A stretch of 64,000 bases of DNA from an uncultured Candidatus Saccharibacteria bacterium (lineage in GTDB: Bacteria; Patescibacteriota; Saccharimonadia; Saccharimonadales; CAZVRA01): the NCBI GenBank assembly GCA_964630055.1, contig CAZVRA010000002.1:15021-79020 (forward strand). The letters run 5' to 3'. The notes under the pieces were generated by a model. That model searched no databases. It was given only the letters and a program-made list of their open reading frames with translations, and was not told the DNA's origin. Within the stretch, counting starts at the first letter, position 1, and every line of letters starts with the position of its first letter. Below are positions 1,898 to 9,658 of this stretch, one piece after another. The position numbers were made by a program, and so were the translations under genes.

Positions 1898-4798
1898 ATG
1901 GGACAAACAACAATCCTGGGCAGCAGGAGGCTTTTTACTCGGCCGGGTACGCGTGGTTATGACGCGCTCGATTGGGTAAAACGCGATTCAATTATTACTA
2001 ATCCTTTTACGGGCAAGGCGGTTTTCGAGCAGCGCGATGTCGAGTTCCCGGAGGGCTGGTCGGTTAATGCCATTAATATTGTGGCCCAAAAATATTTTTC
2101 TGGTACGCCAGGTACCAAGGAGCGCGAAACCTCACTTCGTGACCTAATTGACCGAGTTGTCGACACTGTTGTTCGGCAAGGTTTGGCCGAGGGTTATTTT
2201 GAGTCCAACGAAGAGGCCGAAGATTACCGTGAGGAGCTAAAGTTTGTGTTGGCTACTCAGCGAGCGGCTTTTAATTCGCCGGTTTGGTTTAATATTGGCG
2301 CCAAAGACCGCGCCCAACAAGCTAGTGCTTGTTTTATTCTGGCGGTCGAAGACACTATGCCAGCTATTCTTAAGTGGTACACCGAAGAAGGTATGATATT
2401 TAAGGGCGGCTCTGGTTCGGGTCTAAACATAAGCACTATTAGGTCGTCGGTTGAACCGCTGGGCAAAAGCGCCGGTACTGCTTCGGGACCTCTAAGCTTT
2501 ATGCGCGGGGCTGACGCTTCGGCAGGCGCTATAAAAAGCGGCGGCAAGACACGCCGTGCTGCCAAAATGGTCATAATGAACGCCGATCACCCCGATGTCG
2601 AAGCTTTTATTTGGTGCAAGGCCATCGAGGAACGCAAAGCTCGCGACCTAAAAGCGGCCGGTTGGGACATGGATCTGGACGGACGCGACTCATTCTCGGT
2701 TCAGTATCAAAATGCTAACAACTCGGTGCGGGTTACCGACAGTTTCATGCAAGCAGTCGAAAAAGATGGCGACTGGGACCTAAAAGCCGTTGCAACCGGT
2801 AAGACAGTCAAAACCATCAAGGCTCGCAAATTGTTTAGGCAATTTGCCGAAGCTGCTTGGGAGTGTGCCGATCCTGGAATGCAGTTCGACACCACCATCA
2901 ATAAGTGGCACACCACCCCCAATGCTGGACGTATTAATGCTTCTAACCCCTGTAGCGAATACATGCATTTGGACAATTCGGCTTGTAACTTGGCATCGAT
3001 CAACCTACTCAAATACCTAAACGATGATGGTAGTTTCGATATTGAATCGTTTAAGCATACAGTTGAATTGATGTTTACGGCTCAGGAAATTTTGGTTGGC
3101 TATAGCGAATATCCAACCGAAAGCATCACCAAAAATGCCAAGGCTTACCGTGAACTTGGTCTAGGTTATGCCAATCTGGGCGCTTTATTAATGGCCCAAG
3201 GATTGCCTTATGATTCCGACGAAGGTCGGGCACAGGCTGCGGCCATTACTTCTATAATGACCGGGCAGGCCTACGCCACTAGTGCCAGGATTGCCCGACG
3301 AGTCGGTCCATTTGCCGGCTTCACCAAAGATCAGGACAACATGCTTAAAGTTTTGCGCATGCACCGCCAAGCAGTGTCGGCTATCGACGCCAGCCTGGTA
3401 TCGGAAGACCTGCTGAGCGCTGCGGCTACCGCTTGGGACGACGCCGTCGAGCTGGGCGAGCTTTACGGGGTACGCAACTCCCAGGCCTCAGTTCTAGCTC
3501 CAACAGGTACTATTGGGCTAATGATGGACTGCGACACTACTGGCATTGAGCCCGATCTTGGCCTAGTCAAACTTAAAAAACTGGTTGGCGGCGGAACAAT
3601 GAGCATAGTCAACCAGACCGTGCCACGAGCTCTCAAAACTTTGGGTTACAGCCAGCCTCAAATTGAGGACATCATATCTTATATAGATATCGAAAAAACT
3701 ATCACTTGTGCACCGCATCTAAAACCAGAACATAACGCAGTTTTTGCTTGCTCTATGGGTGATAACCCTATTCACTACCTTGGTCATGTCAAAATGATGT
3801 CGGCTGTGCAGCCATTTTTGTCCGGCGCTATTAGTAAAACTGTCAACATGCCGGAGTCGGCTACTGTAGAAGAAATTGAACAGCTACACATAGATTCCTG
3901 GAAAATGGGCCTCAAAGCAGTAGCAATTTACCGCGATAACTGTAAAGTGGGTCAGCCGCTTAGTATGGCTAAAAAAGATAGTGCACTTAGCCAAAATGAG
4001 TCCAGCGACAACAGTGCTAAAGACAACCAGCAAAAGGCTCCGGCCGCCGCTTCGGTGACGCAGGGAAATACCACAGATCTAGATGGTAAAATTTTGGTCA
4101 AAGGCACGGTGCGTCGCAAGCTACCACGCGTGCGTCATAGTAGGACCTACCGTTTTGTGGTTGCTGATCTAGAAGGATTCTTTACTGTAGGTGAGTACCA
4201 AGACGGCACTCCGGGTGAGCTATTTGTGACTGTTTCCAAGCAAGGGTCAACGCTAGCTGGTCTAATGGATTCGTTTGCGATTAGCGTTAGTCACGGCTTG
4301 CAATACGGCGTGCCTCTAAAAAGCTACGTCAAAACACTAAGGGGCACCACTTTTGCTCCATCTGGCATAACCGACGACGAAGATATCCGCCGAGCCAGCT
4401 CGGTAATCGACTACATATTCCGTCGCTTGGCTATAGACTATCTTTCGTTCGATGATCGCTTGGAGCTTGGACTGGCATCTATAGATGATATGCCTGCCGA
4501 GCAAACTAGCTTGCTTGAATCATCTGGGGCGGGCGTTAGCTCGAACAATGTTAGTACAGAGCCTAAGTCCGAAAATACCGGGGCAGTATCTAGTGATTTA
4601 TTTGCACCAGCCAGTGAAAAACTAGAGAAAGACCGTGTCGATCAATCTCATACCAGCATCGAAGCTAATTCCGCCGAGCCAGCTGGCCAGTCTAACGACG
4701 ATACGGCACCGCTTTGCTACAACTGTGGTAATCAAACTCAGCGTGCCGGTAGCTGCTATGTCTGTACCTCTTGTGGCTCGACCACTGGCTGCTCTTAG
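1898..4798 (+). CDS. nrdJ: Adenosylcobalamin-dependent ribonucleotide reductase, class II
   Basis: 966 aa. N-terminus and core are typical of class II RNR, including the thiyl-radical Cys context NPCSEY and TGIEPD. A low-complexity linker precedes the C-terminal zinc ribbon CYNCG...CYVCTSCG. Confidence 0.9.
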   Translation: MGQTTILGSRRLFTRPGTRGYDALDWVKRDSIITNPFTGKAVFEQRDVEFPEGWSVNAINIVAQKYFSGTPGTKERETSLRDLIDRVVDTVVRQGLAEGYFESNEEAEDYREELKFVLATQRAAFNSPVWFNIGAKDRAQQASACFILAVEDTMPAILKWYTEEGMIFKGGSGSGLNISTIRSSVEPLGKSAGTASGPLSFMRGADASAGAIKSGGKTRRAAKMVIMNADHPDVEAFIWCKAIEERKARDLKAAGWDMDLDGRDSFSVQYQNANNSVRVTDSFMQAVEKDGDWDLKAVATGKTVKTIKARKLFRQFAEAAWECADPGMQFDTTINKWHTTPNAGRINASNPCSEYMHLDNSACNLASINLLKYLNDDGSFDIESFKHTVELMFTAQEILVGYSEYPTESITKNAKAYRELGLGYANLGALLMAQGLPYDSDEGRAQAAAITSIMTGQAYATSARIARRVGPFAGFTKDQDNMLKVLRMHRQAVSAIDASLVSEDLLSAAATAWDDAVELGELYGVRNSQASVLAPTGTIGLMMDCDTTGIEPDLGLVKLKKLVGGGTMSIVNQTVPRALKTLGYSQPQIEDIISYIDIEKTITCAPHLKPEHNAVFACSMGDNPIHYLGHVKMMSAVQPFLSGAISKTVNMPESATVEEIEQLHIDSWKMGLKAVAIYRDNCKVGQPLSMAKKDSALSQNESSDNSAKDNQQKAPAAASVTQGNTTDLDGKILVKGTVRRKLPRVRHSRTYRFVVADLEGFFTVGEYQDGTPGELFVTVSKQGSTLAGLMDSFAISVSHGLQYGVPLKSYVKTLRGTTFAPSGITDDEDIRRASSVIDYIFRRLAIDYLSFDDRLELGLASIDDMPAEQTSLLESSGAGVSSNNVSTEPKSENTGAVSSDLFAPASEKLEKDRVDQSHTSIEANSAEPAGQSNDDTAPLCYNCGNQTQRAGSCYVCTSCGSTTGCS

Positions 4799-4933: not shown

Positions 4934-5200
4934 ATGAAAGTGTTTGTGCTCTATCATCCAACATCTCCAGAGGCTCGGTCGGTGGACGAGTTTGTACGTG
5001 AGTTTACGGTACGTACAGCCAAAAAAATCGAGGTACTCAGCCTAGAAACCAGAGAGGGTGCAGACCTTGCTAGGTTATATGACGTCGTTGCTTATCCGGC
5101 TATTGTGGCGGTGCGAGGCGACGGCCAGTTGTTGCGCTTGTGGCAAGGTGCGGTTTTGCCGTTGATTGACGAAGTGTCGTATTACGTATCGGCCGACTAG
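4934..5200 (+). CDS. Small thioredoxin-fold-like protein lacking the CxxC active site
   Basis: 88 aa with a beta-alpha-beta pattern (KVFVLY / ARSVDEFVREF / IEVLSL) and a cis-Pro-like YPAIVAV. The CxxC position reads TSPE and the protein has no cysteines. Confidence 0.45.
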   Translation: MKVFVLYHPTSPEARSVDEFVREFTVRTAKKIEVLSLETREGADLARLYDVVAYPAIVAVRGDGQLLRLWQGAVLPLIDEVSYYVSAD

Positions 5201-5210
5201 CAGCCGATAT

Positions 5211-5240
5211 TTGCATAGATAGCTGAGCCTAATGTATAAT
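5211..5240 (+). promoter_or_regulatory. Sigma70-type promoter for the ileS leader
   Basis: TTGCAT (5211-5216), 18-nt spacer, TATAAT (5235-5240) preceded by TG. Confidence 0.5.
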
Positions 5241-5246
5241 TTGGCC

Positions 5247-5510
5247 TATAGGCGTTTTAGTTTTGCTCAGAAAACTCTTCTGGAACCAAACTAAAGAAGC
5301 GGTTATCACCCGCTAGCCGTAGGCAGAAATGGCTTGGTACTAGCATAGAATCGGGCTTTAGTAGATCCTACCGTGAAGCTGCGTAAAAGCCATAAGTAAG
5401 CGCTAAAAGAATCGTTTAAGGAACACCTCTTTTAGAAATCGGATGGTACCGTCCTGACTGAGCACTAAGCTCACAGGGATTCCGATAACTAAAACAGGTG
5501 TTTTTTATTT
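5247..5510 (+). promoter_or_regulatory. T-box leader (tRNA-sensing riboswitch) of ileS, candidate Ile AUC specifier
   Basis: T-box core AAAUCGGAUGGUACCGUCCUG at 5437-5456, compared with consensus AAnnnGGGUGGUACCGCG. Flanking arms AUCGGA/UCCGAU and UCCUG/CAGGGA leave a UGGUACC bulge (UGGU at 5444-5447). Hairpin GCGG-UUAUCAC-CCGC at 5299-5313 displays AUC at 5305-5307. Located directly upstream of an aminoacyl-tRNA synthetase gene. Confidence 0.7.
5422..5510 (+). terminator. Long intrinsic-terminator-like hairpin ending the ileS leader
   Basis: AACACCTCTTTTAGAAATCGGA (5422-5443) pairs with TCCGATAACTAAAACAGGTGTT (5481-5502) at 19 of 22 positions. It is followed by TTTTTTATTT. Confidence 0.55.
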
Positions 5511-5528
5511 ACAGAAAGGCTGGAAACG

Positions 5529-8500
5529 ATGAGCATGAAGTTTAAGCATGGTACGCGGCGCAGGGCGCTGGAATACGAAAAAGATTGGGCAGAGCGTTGG
5601 AAGCAAGACAAAACCTTTGAAAAATCGGTGGAACAGCGCAGCAAAGACAGCGCCTATGTTTTTTACGACGGCCCACCGTTTATTAGCGGCAGTCCTCATC
5701 ACGGCACGCTGTTGAGCAGCATCATAAAGGACATTATTCCACGCTACCAAACCATGAAAGGCAAGCGTGTTGAGCGTGTCTGGGGCTGGGATTGCCATGG
5801 CTTACCGGCAGAGCGTTTTACAGAGAAAAAACTTGGCATTAATTCTCGCCAGGAAGTCATTGATTACGGTATAGAAAAGTACATTGTGGCTTGCCGCAAC
5901 AACATGGTGCAAACCAGCGGTGAGTGGAACAGCATCATCGACCGGATTGGCCGCTGGGTCGACATGGATAACGCCTACAAAACCATGGACAAAGAATACA
6001 TGGAAAGCGTGTGGTGGGCGTTTAAGGAATTGTACGAAAAGGGCAAAATATACGAAGGCGAAAAAGTGCTAATGTATTGCACGCTCGACGCTACGCCGCT
6101 CAGTAAGGCTGAAGTTACCATGGACGCTGGCGCCTACCAGGACGTCACCGACCCCAGTGTTTTCGTAAAGTTTGAAGTTATGAATGCAAACAATCATAAG
6201 TTTAACTTGAGTATTGAGGATGATTTATTCCTACTAGCTTGGACAACAACCCCATGGACACTGCCTGCTAATATGGCGCTAGCAGTTAGCAAGGATATCG
6301 AGTACTCGCTAGTGCGAACAGGTGGTGATTATATGATTCTTGCGAAGTCACTTTTGGATAAAGTGTTTGTTGATGAAAAAAAGCAACCTATCGAATATGA
6401 AATAATAAAAGATGCTATTCCAGTCTCTGATTTGGTTGGTTTGGCATATGTGCCTCCATTGATGGGTAGGAGACGCATGAATCATAACCCTCAGCGTCCT
6501 GATTTTAATATCAACACATCTAACTACTATAAAGTATTCTTAGCTGATTTCGTAGGCGATGATACAGGTACGGGCATTGTGCATATTGCTCCGGCGTATG
6601 GCGAGGATGACTTTGAACTTGCCATGAAAAATAATATAGCTGTTCTGCATGTGGTTGATGAAAATGGCAATTATATCGAAGGCGATTGGCAGGGCCAAAA
6701 CGTCTGGGAAATAAACAAACAGATCGCCAAAGACCTCAAAGAGCGCGGTGTAGTCTGGAAGATCGATTATATTCGCCATAGCTACCCGCACTGTCATCGT
6801 TGTGGTACTAAGCTGATGTACCGCGCACATCCCAGTTGGTTTATGGATATCGACGGGCAGCGCCAGCAGATGCTAGAAAACAATCAGCCCATCAACTGGT
6901 TCCCGCCATATGTTAAAAACGGCCGGTTTGCTAAGACAATCGAAACCGCTCCAGACTGGAACCTGAGCCGCGACCGTTTTTGGGCGACAGCTATGCCTGT
7001 CTGGAAGACTGAAACTGGCAAGGTAAAAGTAGTTGGTAGCTACGCCGAACTTAAACAACTGAGCGGTAGGGAACTGGACGATTACCACCGACCATGGGTC
7101 GACGACATCACCTTTGAAATCGACGGCGAAACCTACACTCGTATCGATAAGGTCATCGACTGCTGGTTCGAAAGCGGCAGTATGCCGTTCGCGCAGTTCC
7201 ATTATCCGTTCGAAAACAAAGCCAAGTTTGAGGCAAACTTTCCGGGCGACTTTATTGTGGAATACGTCGGTCAGGTGCGCGCCTGGTTTTACTATGTGCA
7301 CGCTGTGAGCACGGCACTATTTGGCACAAATGGCTTCAAAAACGTGATTGTAACCGGCAACGTGGCTGGTAGCGATGGCCGCAAAATGAGTAAAAGCTAC
7401 GGCAATTATACCGACCCAAATGAGCTAATGGATAAGTTTAGTGCCGATTCTTTGCGGTTTTTGCTGGCTTCTAGCCCGCTGCTAAGCGGCGAGGATTTTG
7501 CGCTGCAAGACAAAGAAGTAGGCGACGTGGCACGCAAGCTGAGCATGATTTGGAATATGTACGACTTTTTCACAATGTACGCCGAGGTAGATGACTTCAC
7601 ATTTCCGTACTCTGCGGCGTCATCAGATGCGTTTCTCGTTCACGGTATGTCACATACCGCTCACTCCGATACTCCTGATTCCTTGCATAGCATCGCAAAT
7701 GAGAAGTCATACCAGATAGATGTAGATGTATCCAAGCTAAAAAACCCCTTGGATATTTGGATCGTGTCTCGCTTGCATCAGTTGGTCGCCGAAGTAGAAA
7801 AGCACCTAGACGGCTACAATTTGCCAGATGCCATGAGTCCAATCCTGCCGTTTATCGATGACGCGAGCAACTGGTATGTGCGGCGTAGCCGGCGTCGGTT
7901 CTGGAAGAGCGACCAAACAGACGACAAAAACGATGCCTATAAGACACTGCACTATGTGTTGGTGCGCCTGGCTTATGTTTTGGCGCCGTTCACACCGTTT
8001 TTGGCCGAAGAACTCTACCACAATCTAACGGGCGACAAGCAGTCTATTCACCTAAAAGATTGGCTGCCAGCTGGTAATGTCGATCAATTAGTTACTAGCG
8101 AAATGGAAACCGTCCGCGACTACGTCAACCAAGGGCTCAGCATGCGCGCCAAGACCGGCTTAAAAGTTCGCCAGCCACTGGCCAGCATAACAGTGCCGAG
8201 CCTAGGTCAAAATATCGACTTCGAGTCAATCTTAACAGATGAGTTAAATGTTAAATCGGTAAAAGTTGGCCAGGAAATCGCCATAGACGATCAGCTAACG
8301 CCAGAACTCGAGCGCGAGGGACTAATGCGCGAGGTTATTAGGCACGTCCAGAATGCACGTAAAGAGGCTGGACTTAACATCGATGACCGCATAAAGCTTG
8401 GCTTGGTAGCCGATAATCTTCATCTTGAGCAGGCTATAGCTGACCATAAATCGACCATTAGCAACGAAACTTTAGCCGTCAGTCTAGATAGCGTAAGTGC

Positions 8501-8573
8501 CGGAGGAGCTCTTTTGGAGAAAAAAGTCGAAATAGAGGGTAGTAAACTGGCAATCAGTATTGATAAAGTATAA
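5529..8573 (+). CDS. ileS: Isoleucyl-tRNA synthetase
   Basis: 1014 aa. HIGH-type motif SPHHGT, KMSKS present (GRKMSKSYGNY), CP1 editing insertion (TTTPWTLPAN). Confidence 0.97.
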   Translation: MSMKFKHGTRRRALEYEKDWAERWKQDKTFEKSVEQRSKDSAYVFYDGPPFISGSPHHGTLLSSIIKDIIPRYQTMKGKRVERVWGWDCHGLPAERFTEKKLGINSRQEVIDYGIEKYIVACRNNMVQTSGEWNSIIDRIGRWVDMDNAYKTMDKEYMESVWWAFKELYEKGKIYEGEKVLMYCTLDATPLSKAEVTMDAGAYQDVTDPSVFVKFEVMNANNHKFNLSIEDDLFLLAWTTTPWTLPANMALAVSKDIEYSLVRTGGDYMILAKSLLDKVFVDEKKQPIEYEIIKDAIPVSDLVGLAYVPPLMGRRRMNHNPQRPDFNINTSNYYKVFLADFVGDDTGTGIVHIAPAYGEDDFELAMKNNIAVLHVVDENGNYIEGDWQGQNVWEINKQIAKDLKERGVVWKIDYIRHSYPHCHRCGTKLMYRAHPSWFMDIDGQRQQMLENNQPINWFPPYVKNGRFAKTIETAPDWNLSRDRFWATAMPVWKTETGKVKVVGSYAELKQLSGRELDDYHRPWVDDITFEIDGETYTRIDKVIDCWFESGSMPFAQFHYPFENKAKFEANFPGDFIVEYVGQVRAWFYYVHAVSTALFGTNGFKNVIVTGNVAGSDGRKMSKSYGNYTDPNELMDKFSADSLRFLLASSPLLSGEDFALQDKEVGDVARKLSMIWNMYDFFTMYAEVDDFTFPYSAASSDAFLVHGMSHTAHSDTPDSLHSIANEKSYQIDVDVSKLKNPLDIWIVSRLHQLVAEVEKHLDGYNLPDAMSPILPFIDDASNWYVRRSRRRFWKSDQTDDKNDAYKTLHYVLVRLAYVLAPFTPFLAEELYHNLTGDKQSIHLKDWLPAGNVDQLVTSEMETVRDYVNQGLSMRAKTGLKVRQPLASITVPSLGQNIDFESILTDELNVKSVKVGQEIAIDDQLTPELEREGLMREVIRHVQNARKEAGLNIDDRIKLGLVADNLHLEQAIADHKSTISNETLAVSLDSVSAGGALLEKKVEIEGSKLAISIDKV

Positions 8574-8581
8574 TTACTATT

Positions 8582-9658
8582 ATGCTGGCTCAATCGAACA
8601 AAAAACAAAGATTTTTTATAAGGCGCCTGGACGGTCGGGTCAACGCTGATATTTTTTTACTGGCAGGCATTATGACCATCATGGCTACCAGGTTGTATCT
8701 TGCTGCATCGCATTACCCGCAGCTGGGTGGTCGTAGTTTGCACATAGCTCACATGCTTTGGGGCGGCTTGCTTATGACCAGTGCGCTTGGCATGGGGTTG
8801 CTTTTTTTGGGTCGGCGATTGCAAAAATTAGTGGCTCTTATTGGTGGTATCGGATTCGGCCTATTTATAGATGAACTTGGTAAGTTTATAACTCGCGATC
8901 ACAATTATTTTTTTCGGCCAACAATAGGATTGGTTTATATGATTTTTGTGGTTTTTTATCTGCTGGCTTTAGCTATTACTAGCAATGATTCTTCTACCGA
9001 AAATGGCAACAAGCATAATGCCGACATTTTTTTAGAAGAAATAATTCAAAAGGGCATGAATAAGTCGCATAAGAATAAGATAAAACATCTGCTGAGGCCA
9101 TTAGTGGGTGATGAGTCTGTTGGTATGCTATATAAGCTGGTCGATAGCTTGCCTAATGATGAGGCACCAAAGAGGTTGTCGTTAATTTCGCGAATAAATT
9201 TAGGTTTACAAAATTGGTATGATCGGTTGTACCAGTCACCAAAGGTCGCCAATTGGGCTAGGCTAGTGTTTCTGCTAGGTATGGCTGCCGCCTTTTTTAG
9301 TTTAGATTATGTAAACAGCGTAAGTGACAATTCGCTTTTTTTGCCCAGCGGTGAGCTTGTGCATGAATGGGCTTTTTTTGCCCGCGGGCAGTATATATCA
9401 ACATTTTTCACCGAGGCATTGCTATTAATAGGGTTGATTGTTGTTATAAAAAGCCGCCGCCTTGCACTGCGTTGTCTGTATTTTGCGGCACTTATCAATC
9501 TGTTATTTACTCAGTTTTTTCTGTTCGCCAGATTAAATTTTAAGGCATTGCCAATTTTTGGACTAAACTTATTGGGATTTGGGCTGGTTAAGTTTGCCAT
9601 GTATCAGGAACGTCGGCGAACTGCTAAGGTTAGGGTTGTAGCTTCCCAAAATACCTAA
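8582..9658 (+). CDS. Polytopic membrane protein, unknown function
   Basis: 358 aa. Multiple hydrophobic helices at both ends with a central soluble segment. Contains the motif HIAHMLWGGLLM...GLFIDELGKFIT, which I do not recognise. Confidence 0.55.
   Translation: MLAQSNKKQRFFIRRLDGRVNADIFLLAGIMTIMATRLYLAASHYPQLGGRSLHIAHMLWGGLLMTSALGMGLLFLGRRLQKLVALIGGIGFGLFIDELGKFITRDHNYFFRPTIGLVYMIFVVFYLLALAITSNDSSTENGNKHNADIFLEEIIQKGMNKSHKNKIKHLLRPLVGDESVGMLYKLVDSLPNDEAPKRLSLISRINLGLQNWYDRLYQSPKVANWARLVFLLGMAAAFFSLDYVNSVSDNSLFLPSGELVHEWAFFARGQYISTFFTEALLLIGLIVVIKSRRLALRCLYFAALINLLFTQFFLFARLNFKALPIFGLNLLGFGLVKFAMYQERRRTAKVRVVASQNT

Follow-up and report, generated by a model that had tools for sequence, protein, structure and literature searches.

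A predicted tRNA-Ile T-box leader of ileS in Saccharibacteria with its tRNA 3′-end-binding module inside the putative terminator

The model case of a structured RNA that senses a second structured RNA is the T-box riboswitch, and for the example dealt with here the closest known relatives are the ultrashort ileS T-boxes of Actinobacteria (Mycobacterium smegmatis, M. tuberculosis and Nocardia farcinica). The example is the leader of ileS, the gene for isoleucyl-tRNA synthetase (IleRS), in a 64,000-nucleotide (nt) stretch of a Saccharibacteria contig, below termed the window; all positions are those of the window, and the analysis was computational only. Saccharibacteria (TM7/Patescibacteria) are ultra-small episymbionts of the Candidate Phyla Radiation. 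Positions 5298-5510 are assigned, by sequence and by comparison with relatives, to a tRNA-Ile T-box leader in front of a type-2 IleRS gene. The preferred reading, to which a probability of roughly 0.7 is attached, is that this leader is a tRNA-Ile-sensing riboswitch that would control ileS by transcription attenuation via a nested expression platform, i.e. one in which the module expected to bind the tRNA 3′ end lies within the terminator hairpin.

In the established coupling, stacking of tRNA stabilises helix A1, the aminoacyl group of charged tRNA shears it, and the 3′ strands of A1 and A2 become the 5′ strand of a terminator; the current structural model is that tRNA stacking on A1 decides between ON and OFF. 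According to review, fast tRNA capture by transcriptional T-boxes generally depends on a long Stem I and its elbow-binding platform. Sherwood in 2015 reportedly predicted translational control for many, and not all, atypical ileS leaders of Actinobacteria. The ultrashort Stem I class has been described as translational, with all known members regulating ileS (bioRxiv 10.1101/2023.02.28.530422). In the database TBDB, class I leaders derive from Rfam and comparable sources; the class II model was run on Actinobacteria only. A literature search for T-boxes in Saccharibacteria, Patescibacteria, the Candidate Phyla Radiation or TM7 yielded no paper, an earlier mention of ultrashort leaders with terminators being still possible, and a nested T-box terminator was not found in the T-box literature examined, several key papers lying outside that coverage.

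Identity of the leader and its relatives

The open reading frame (ORF) of 1014 amino acids that follows the leader (5529-8573) is ileS, with the Pfam domains tRNA-synt_1, Anticodon_1 and DUF5915 and an 814-bit match to NCBIfam TIGR00392. Its product is of type 2: the best solved relatives, 8c8v and 1ile, score ~620-650 bits as against 271 bits for the type-1 enzyme 1ffy. At the gathering threshold no Rfam family is found anywhere in the window. In a permissive scan of the leader RF00230 aligns end to end (5293-5487, model positions 1-219, 29.2 bits, E = 9e-05), with the 87 Stem I positions of the model reduced to 30 nt and CUAAAAG/CUUUUAG placed as Stem III. An earlier note on this DNA had proposed a T-box ahead of ileS, and this match, the downstream gene, the AUC specifier and the conserved modules described below bear it out. 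Twenty relatives scanned at the gathering threshold gave no T-box match, and because they and the window all fall below that threshold the class stays unannotated.

An IleRS protein scan, with one genome per species, gave 80 loci, almost all under the label Saccharibacteria, Saccharimonadia or Saccharimonadales, whose IleRS proteins are 61-72 % identical to that of the window. Most carry the core TTRGAAnnnnGAUGGUACC upstream of ileS. A regular expression for the core overlooked 10 loci, of which a covariance model, R1, regained 8, two as partial matches at the sequence end; by covariance model the element is present in 78 of the 80, one of the other two being without upstream DNA and one having only 544 nt. 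The window itself has a single copy by R1. Its core, AAATCGGATGGTACCGTCCTG, starts at 5436 (5436-5456), where the earlier note had been off by one with 5437; barring such corrections as are given here, all strings quoted in that note are found in the window. Leaders were parsed from fixed anchors, and the main alignment, A4, consists of anchored ungapped excerpts from 67 sequences; it replaced a plain MAFFT alignment because the latter gave inconsistent registers of the Stem III 5′ arm between subgroups. Counts for the decoding domain come from a MAFFT alignment of 54 leaders.

Stem I is no more than a hairpin of 4-5 base pairs (bp) with a 7-nt loop (GCGG-UUAUCAC-CCGC, 5299-5313), its family consensus being GAGYGG-YUAUCAN-CCRCGA, and it is 100 % paired with double changes in 4/4 pairs. 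The loop triplet is AUC in 69 of 70 leaders and the next base is A in 63, a degree of conservation that settles what had been put forward as a tentative specifier; the resemblance to the actinobacterial ultrashort Stem I, also remarked on earlier, agrees with the published definition of that class. The lower helix of Stem II is 97 % paired and flanks S-turn strands CAGAAA (5324-5329, family consensus GAAGAA) and AGUAGA (5360-5365), with an upper helix that is 92 % paired. Stem IIA is 95 % paired, and Stem IIB has compensatory changes in three pairs, a fourth candidate pair being without support in these counts. As a whole the decoding domain is 90.8 % paired, a figure reached by none of 500 shuffles and to be compared with 33-40 % in slid controls.

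Beyond this, most relatives have, at the base of Stem I, what resembles a K-turn/GA motif (GAC-GUU-UGA-GUGG...CCAC-GA-GUC, e.g. L005:1250-1285, L008:1290-1335 and L021:1080-1125), which in a subgroup is interrupted by a small covarying hairpin (UUCGCU-UUGC-AGCGAA, UCUGU...ACAGA) that might make a k-junction. The copy in the window (5270-5316) has such a hairpin at ~5277-5299, but with CCGCUAG on the 3′ side instead of CCRCGA, and a GA motif is not evident. On the minus strand the Stem I hairpin (5298-5314) plus a T-rich run is the sole match of a terminator scan in the region, a pattern artefact.

In the discriminator, the RRRxG-Stem III-AA motif defined in PMC7583486 is recognizable, and the invariant columns of A4 are AAGnG, the closing C...G of Stem III, the AA linker that follows it (columns G32, A33 and A34 for this G and the linker) and GAUGG-ACC (n = 67). 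A1 is 100 % paired, at 6/6 positions in every parsed leader and with covariation in 4/6 pairs, and A2 is 95 % paired; the arms and the UGGUACC bulge are present as described before, save for a slightly different register of A2 (formerly UCCUG/CAGGGA). The bulge has natural variants at the N position, the one expected to pair with the tRNA discriminator base, with UGGA in L007, L034 (CP011211.1), L035 and L073 and UGGC in L049, and in the ACC part, among loci found by covariance model only, UGGUAAC in L017, L028 and L069 and UGGUAUC in L018. The A2 of the window has a hairpin of its own at the apex (5459-5463 with 5469-5473, 5 bp). Other lineages have hairpin insertions in the Stem III loop, of up to ~55 nt (L012, L055, L064, L070), or in the A2 loop, of up to ~60 nt (L061, L077), and the helices flanking these insertions retain pairing.

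The degree of conservation bears on the quite improbable proposition that tRNA sensing has been lost, the T-box parts being a relic and the long hairpin serving as a stabilising element or as an attenuator of constitutive or leaky action. A relic would suit the small, reduced genomes, the Rfam score under threshold and the lack of conservation of G-U at the base of A2. However, the specifier, S-turn, pseudoknot, RRRxG/AA and UGGNACC are invariant or covarying while the IleRS proteins are only 61-72 % identical, and the persistence of each tRNA-contacting element across such divergent leaders points to purifying selection on each. Stem III also covaries, though a plain terminator has no need of it. 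The comparative data from the 80 loci settle the T-box question. The leader has a specifier, an S-turn, the pseudoknot, RRRxG/AA and a 7-nt bulge; three further attributes, namely a long Stem I with elbow platform, an Rfam score above threshold and the canonical terminator topology, are missing. Despite these three, the element is, on comparative grounds, to be counted as a T-box both by its presumptive working and by its filing.

Two helices with one strand in common

Within the leader, CTAAAAGA (5403-5410) and TCTTTTAG (5428-5435) form an inverted repeat of perfect 8-nt complementarity. The first of these had been suggested to be the upstream partner competing with the terminator, and it is indeed a perfect, covarying complement of 5428-5435. 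From its conserved setting between RRRxG and AA it is recognizable as the 5′ arm of a canonical Stem III and not as an ad hoc anti-terminator, and being flanked by these purines it would therefore be part of the tRNA 3′-end sensor itself. Stem III is 91.5 % paired over 9 positions in A4, with double changes in 8/9 pairs (91.9 % in a separate count); slid controls for the whole ON structure give 35-57 %, and 0/500 shuffles reach the observed value.

The competing helix is the lower stem of a hairpin. Pairing of 5422-5443 with 5481-5502 at 19 of 22 positions (Watson-Crick), trailed by the U-run TTTTTTATTT at 5501-5510, had been reported before and is exact in the window. The hairpin 5418-5506 is the minimum free energy (MFE) fold at -36.5 kcal/mol, shuffled sequences giving -17.3 +/- 3.1 (z = -6.3). 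Its lower stem comprises 14-16 bp plus the U-run and encloses A1, the bulge and A2, whose module occurs in the MFE folds of ON and OFF alike; the 3′ strand begins 2 nt past the 3′ arm of A1, the two residues between, AA 5487-5488, being the other side of the internal loop that the OFF fold forms with the AA linker. In 70 sequences the lower stem is 92.4 % canonical at 16 positions. The full OFF structure is 94.5 % paired in A4, with double changes in 23/27 pairs, as against 40-57 % for slid controls and 0/500 shuffles, and RNAalifold applied to an ordinary MAFFT alignment yields the nested fold unaided, with compensatory changes in 19/21 pairs. The embedding of the T-box bulge in the terminator hairpin, noticed earlier in the window, is thus conserved with covariation in relatives.

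The strand made up of Stem III loop and 3′ arm pairs either with the Stem III 5′ arm (ON) or with the terminator 3′ strand (OFF), and since one strand is common to both helices, Stem III and the lower stem exclude each other. All three strands covary jointly; at one position, for instance, the triplet is GCG in 28 sequences and ATA in 23. OFF is the more stable fold in 69 of 69 leaders, by a median of -9.8 kcal/mol. When the nascent transcript of the window is folded, ON is the MFE fold for 3′ ends up to 5496 and OFF from 5500 onwards. Stem III thus forms first and the terminator is the thermodynamic default. Two checks that the earlier note had proposed accordingly come out in its favor: folding of both alternatives gives the Stem III fold in early transcripts and the terminator once 5500 has been transcribed, and in related ileS leaders both helices are ~92-94 % paired (slid controls 35-57 %, 0/500 shuffles).

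What the long helix does is a separate matter. By analogy with the actinobacterial class, described as translational and regulating ileS in all its members, the helix and U-run might not be a terminator at all and control might be exerted on ribosome access, the more so as 5411-5417 is able to pair with 5524-5530 across the start codon. Yet a U-run of 4-7 nt directly adjoins the end of the stem in 67 of 70 leaders, the Shine-Dalgarno-like motif of the family lies at least 8 nt (median 14) 3′ of the U-run start and outside the conserved helix, and in ~23 loci another ORF separates T-box and ileS. The start-codon pairing is specific to the window, the Stem III loop of relatives being 4 nt. Translational control of this type is accordingly considered improbable, though no other single alternative is rated higher. 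The pairing itself (5411-5417 AUCGUUU with 5524-5530 AAACGAU) is perfect and would add 7 bp to the OFF hairpin; given the 4-nt loops elsewhere, it is probably due to chance.

A hidden canonical mechanism, in which the true terminator forms at the expense of A1/A2 and the nested helix extends them only incidentally, would follow the rule in reviews, and in the window CCUG in the 5′ strand of A2 has a possible pairing partner in CAGG at 5495-5498. But there is little for it to be built from: between the A1 3′ arm and the U-run lies only the nested 3′ strand, the nested stem covaries over 16 positions, and folding the downstream strand onto the 3′ halves of A1 and A2 gives a median of -4.1 kcal/mol compared with -15.6 for the nested lower stem alone, too weak for a canonical terminator. 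This makes it very improbable.

Table 1. Features of the ileS leader and its flanks, in window coordinates; functional names are predictions
Feature	Position	Strand	Details
Putative sigma-70-type promoter	5211-5240	+	TTGCAT 5211-5216, spacer 18 nt, TATAAT 5235-5240; read from sequence
Ultrashort Stem I	5298-5314	+	AGCGG/CCGCU stem, 7-nt terminal loop UUAUCAC; AUC 5305-5307, then purine A5308
Stem II	5319-5371	+	Lower helix 5319-5323 with 5367-5371; from Rfam alignment, RNAalifold consensus and pair counts
Stem IIA + IIB pseudoknot	5372-5391	+	IIA CGU 5372-5374/GCG 5381-5383; IIB GCU 5378-5380/AGC 5388-5390
Purine string AAGCG = RRRxG motif	5398-5402	+	5′ of Stem III; A, G, G invariant, n = 67
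Stem III, ON-state helix	5403-5435	+	5′ arm CUAAAAGA 5403-5410, 17-nt loop, 3′ arm UCUUUUAG 5428-5435; closing pair C5403-G5435
Lower terminator stem, 5′ strand	5418-5435	+	3′ part of Stem III loop + Stem III 3′ arm; common to both competing helices; from MFE fold and three-way covariation
AA linker	5436-5437	+	Between Stem III and A1; one side of 2x2 internal loop in OFF fold
Putative tRNA 3′-end-binding module	5438-5486	+	A1 AUCGGA 5438-5443 with UCCGAU 5481-5486; bulge UGGUACC 5444-5450; A2 GUCCU 5451-5455 with AGGGAU 5476-5480
Lower terminator stem, 3′ strand	5489-5506	+	CUAAAACAGGUG then U's; near-copy of Stem III 5′ arm
U-tract of predicted intrinsic terminator	5501-5510	+	UUUUUUAUUU; T columns at least 90 % conserved
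Shine-Dalgarno-like AAAGG and start codon	5515-5519; ATG 5529-5531	+	Both outside terminator helix

A possible mechanism and what weighs against it

In the attenuation reading, the decoding domain, with its AUC-A loop in Stem I, the S-turn of Stem II and the IIA/B pseudoknot, would capture the anticodon of tRNA-Ile(GAU), and the discriminator, consisting of RRRxG, Stem III, AA, A1, UGGUACC and A2, would read the tRNA 3′ end. Stem III and A1/A2 would be the first to fold during transcription. Were the 3′ end of an uncharged tRNA-Ile then to settle on UGGU, the purines flanking Stem III would dock and Stem III would be locked, and RNA polymerase might then be past the U-tract before the emerging terminator 3′ strand could dislodge the Stem III 5′ arm, so allowing read-through. 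With charged tRNA, or none, Stem III would stay undocked and be open to invasion from its A1-proximal end, the long hairpin would form and transcription would terminate. For charged tRNA it has been described that the linker is flexible and that Stem III shifts away from the antisequestrator (PMC12647780). We infer tRNA binding, charge sensing, termination itself and the protection of Stem III as the coupling step from the sequences.

A narrower proposition goes further, namely that A1, bulge and A2 are pre-formed and the same in ON and OFF, that the tRNA 3′ end acts only by latching Stem III and the purine string against invasion by a duplicate of the 5′ arm, and that this holds phylum-wide in Saccharibacteria, with an elbow-less ultrashort Stem I and a co-transcriptional decision. 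It is held to be a little more probable than its contrary.

Since stabilisation of A1 by tRNA stacking is established and A1 lies within the terminator, the logic could in principle be inverted, tRNA on the bulge stabilising both A1 and the terminator enclosing it, with uncharged tRNA as repressor. Repression of ileS just when tRNA-Ile is uncharged would, however, be physiologically senseless, and of the four alternatives (translational, hidden canonical, relic and inverted) this is the most far-fetched; even all four combined are judged unlikely.

Several points weigh against attenuation by a nested terminator, or against its assignment to the T-boxes. The Infernal check suggested earlier does yield a T-box match, but at 29 bits it is far under the gathering score of 93 for RF00230 (29.2 bits versus 93 for the window leader). 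A simple terminator scan does not report the nested terminator, an omission due to its "loop" being the whole A1/A2 module and exceeding 8 nt, and the lower stem is AU-rich. In one relative, L067 (973-1070), the discriminator is intact and the lower stem is weak and unconvincing, with no U-run; a small hairpin there, GUAUC-GAAAGGA-GAUAC, contains the Shine-Dalgarno motif, and this leader might be a translational derivative. The published A1-based coupling cannot apply where A1 belongs to both folds, and for the presumed transmission of the charge state to Stem III work on Mycobacterium has been extrapolated. The distal elbow-binding platform of a long Stem I (interdigitated T-loops) is missing, though reviewed as generally needed by transcriptional T-boxes. 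A G-U wobble at the base of A2 has been described as the primary steric sieve against the 3′-aminoacyl group; the window has it (G5451-U5480), and across the family the pair is G-U in 34/67, A-U in 15, U-A in 14, G-C in 1 and unpaired in 3. Lastly, tRNA-Ile genes, whose discriminator base might covary with the N position of the UGGA and UGGC bulge variants, were sought in the window and in loci L001-L060 and not found.

Surroundings of the element and comparison with known systems

The gap ahead of ileS is 328 nt long (5201-5528), as given earlier, and is preceded by an ORF of 88 amino acids (4934-5200), upstream of which a class II (B12-dependent) ribonucleotide reductase with a TSCPD domain is encoded at 1898-4798. 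Pfam and NCBIfam scans gave no match for the 88-amino acid ORF or for an ORF of 358 amino acids 3′ of ileS (within 8582-9658), and tRNA and tmRNA genes were sought in the window without any being found. The promoter called good in the earlier note is there as TTGCAT-18-TATAAT, but the adjective is generous: its -10 element is perfect, the -35 agrees with TTGACA at only 3/6 positions and is weak, and it is for this reason that a promoter scan omitted 5211-5240. In many relatives -10-like boxes upstream of Stem I are visible by eye (alignment A1).

In ~23 loci ileS follows the T-box at a distance of 300-1250 nt, with a variable small ORF between the two (L001, L002, L004, L009-L011, L015-L017, L021, L022, L025, L031, L033, L034, L038, L047, L049, L050, L055, L056, L073 and L080). 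By their N-terminal sequence only, the intervening ORFs are CYTH-like, GNAT-like or Tag-glycosylase-like, with in addition acidic proteins of 60-75 amino acids. There, ileS would be the second gene of a T-box-controlled unit.

Threshold-based Rfam annotation overlooks this entire class. If the attenuation reading is right, T-box regulation extends to Saccharibacteria. With A1 in both states and Stem III exchanged, the contributions of "A1 stacking" and of a "Stem III latch" become separable; on the narrower proposition given above, stabilisation of A1 would be dispensable as an output step, and a T-box discriminator might drive its expression platform by way of one helix or the other. The variant would also suggest that a co-transcriptional decision is feasible in the absence of the elbow contact by Stem I, which is regarded as necessary for speed. 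From a practical perspective, the nested layout is a compact plan for engineered tRNA-responsive terminators.

With the actinobacterial ultrashort class the Saccharibacteria leaders share the AUC in the terminal loop of a short Stem I, the lack of an elbow platform, ileS as the gene and (here as a prediction) tRNA-Ile as the ligand, together with the Stem II S-turn, IIA/B pseudoknot, purine linker, Stem III and A1/bulge/A2. The difference is in output and phylum. In Actinobacteria a sequestrator and an antisequestrator rearrange, whereas the Saccharibacteria leaders have a predicted intrinsic terminator that leaves the Shine-Dalgarno motif free; in the window that motif is outside the helix and the U-run follows directly, contrary to what marks translational control in the ultrashort class, and A1/A2 are kept in the OFF fold while Stem III is exchanged.

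The likeness to canonical RF00230 T-boxes such as Bacillus subtilis glyQS and tyrS lies in attenuation, with a terminator more stable than the tRNA-stabilised fold (here as predicted), in the 7-nt bulge with UGGN at its 5′ edge beside A1, and in RRRxG-Stem III-AA. Canonical leaders, in contrast, have a long Stem I with a distal platform where there is here a hairpin of 4-5 bp, and build the 5′ strand of their terminator from the 3′ strands of A1/A2, so that stabilisation of A1 decides; the predicted terminator here does not draw on those strands, but keeps and encloses A1/A2 and rivals Stem III. A further parallel is with strand-invasion expression platforms (PMC10907184), where an upstream helix gives way to a 3′ strand copying part of it unless ligand locks the fold. 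There is a difference even so, in that the helix that would be displaced here is not the ligand-pairing one but the accessory sensor helix, Stem III, and the ligand-pairing module would end up at the apex of the terminator.

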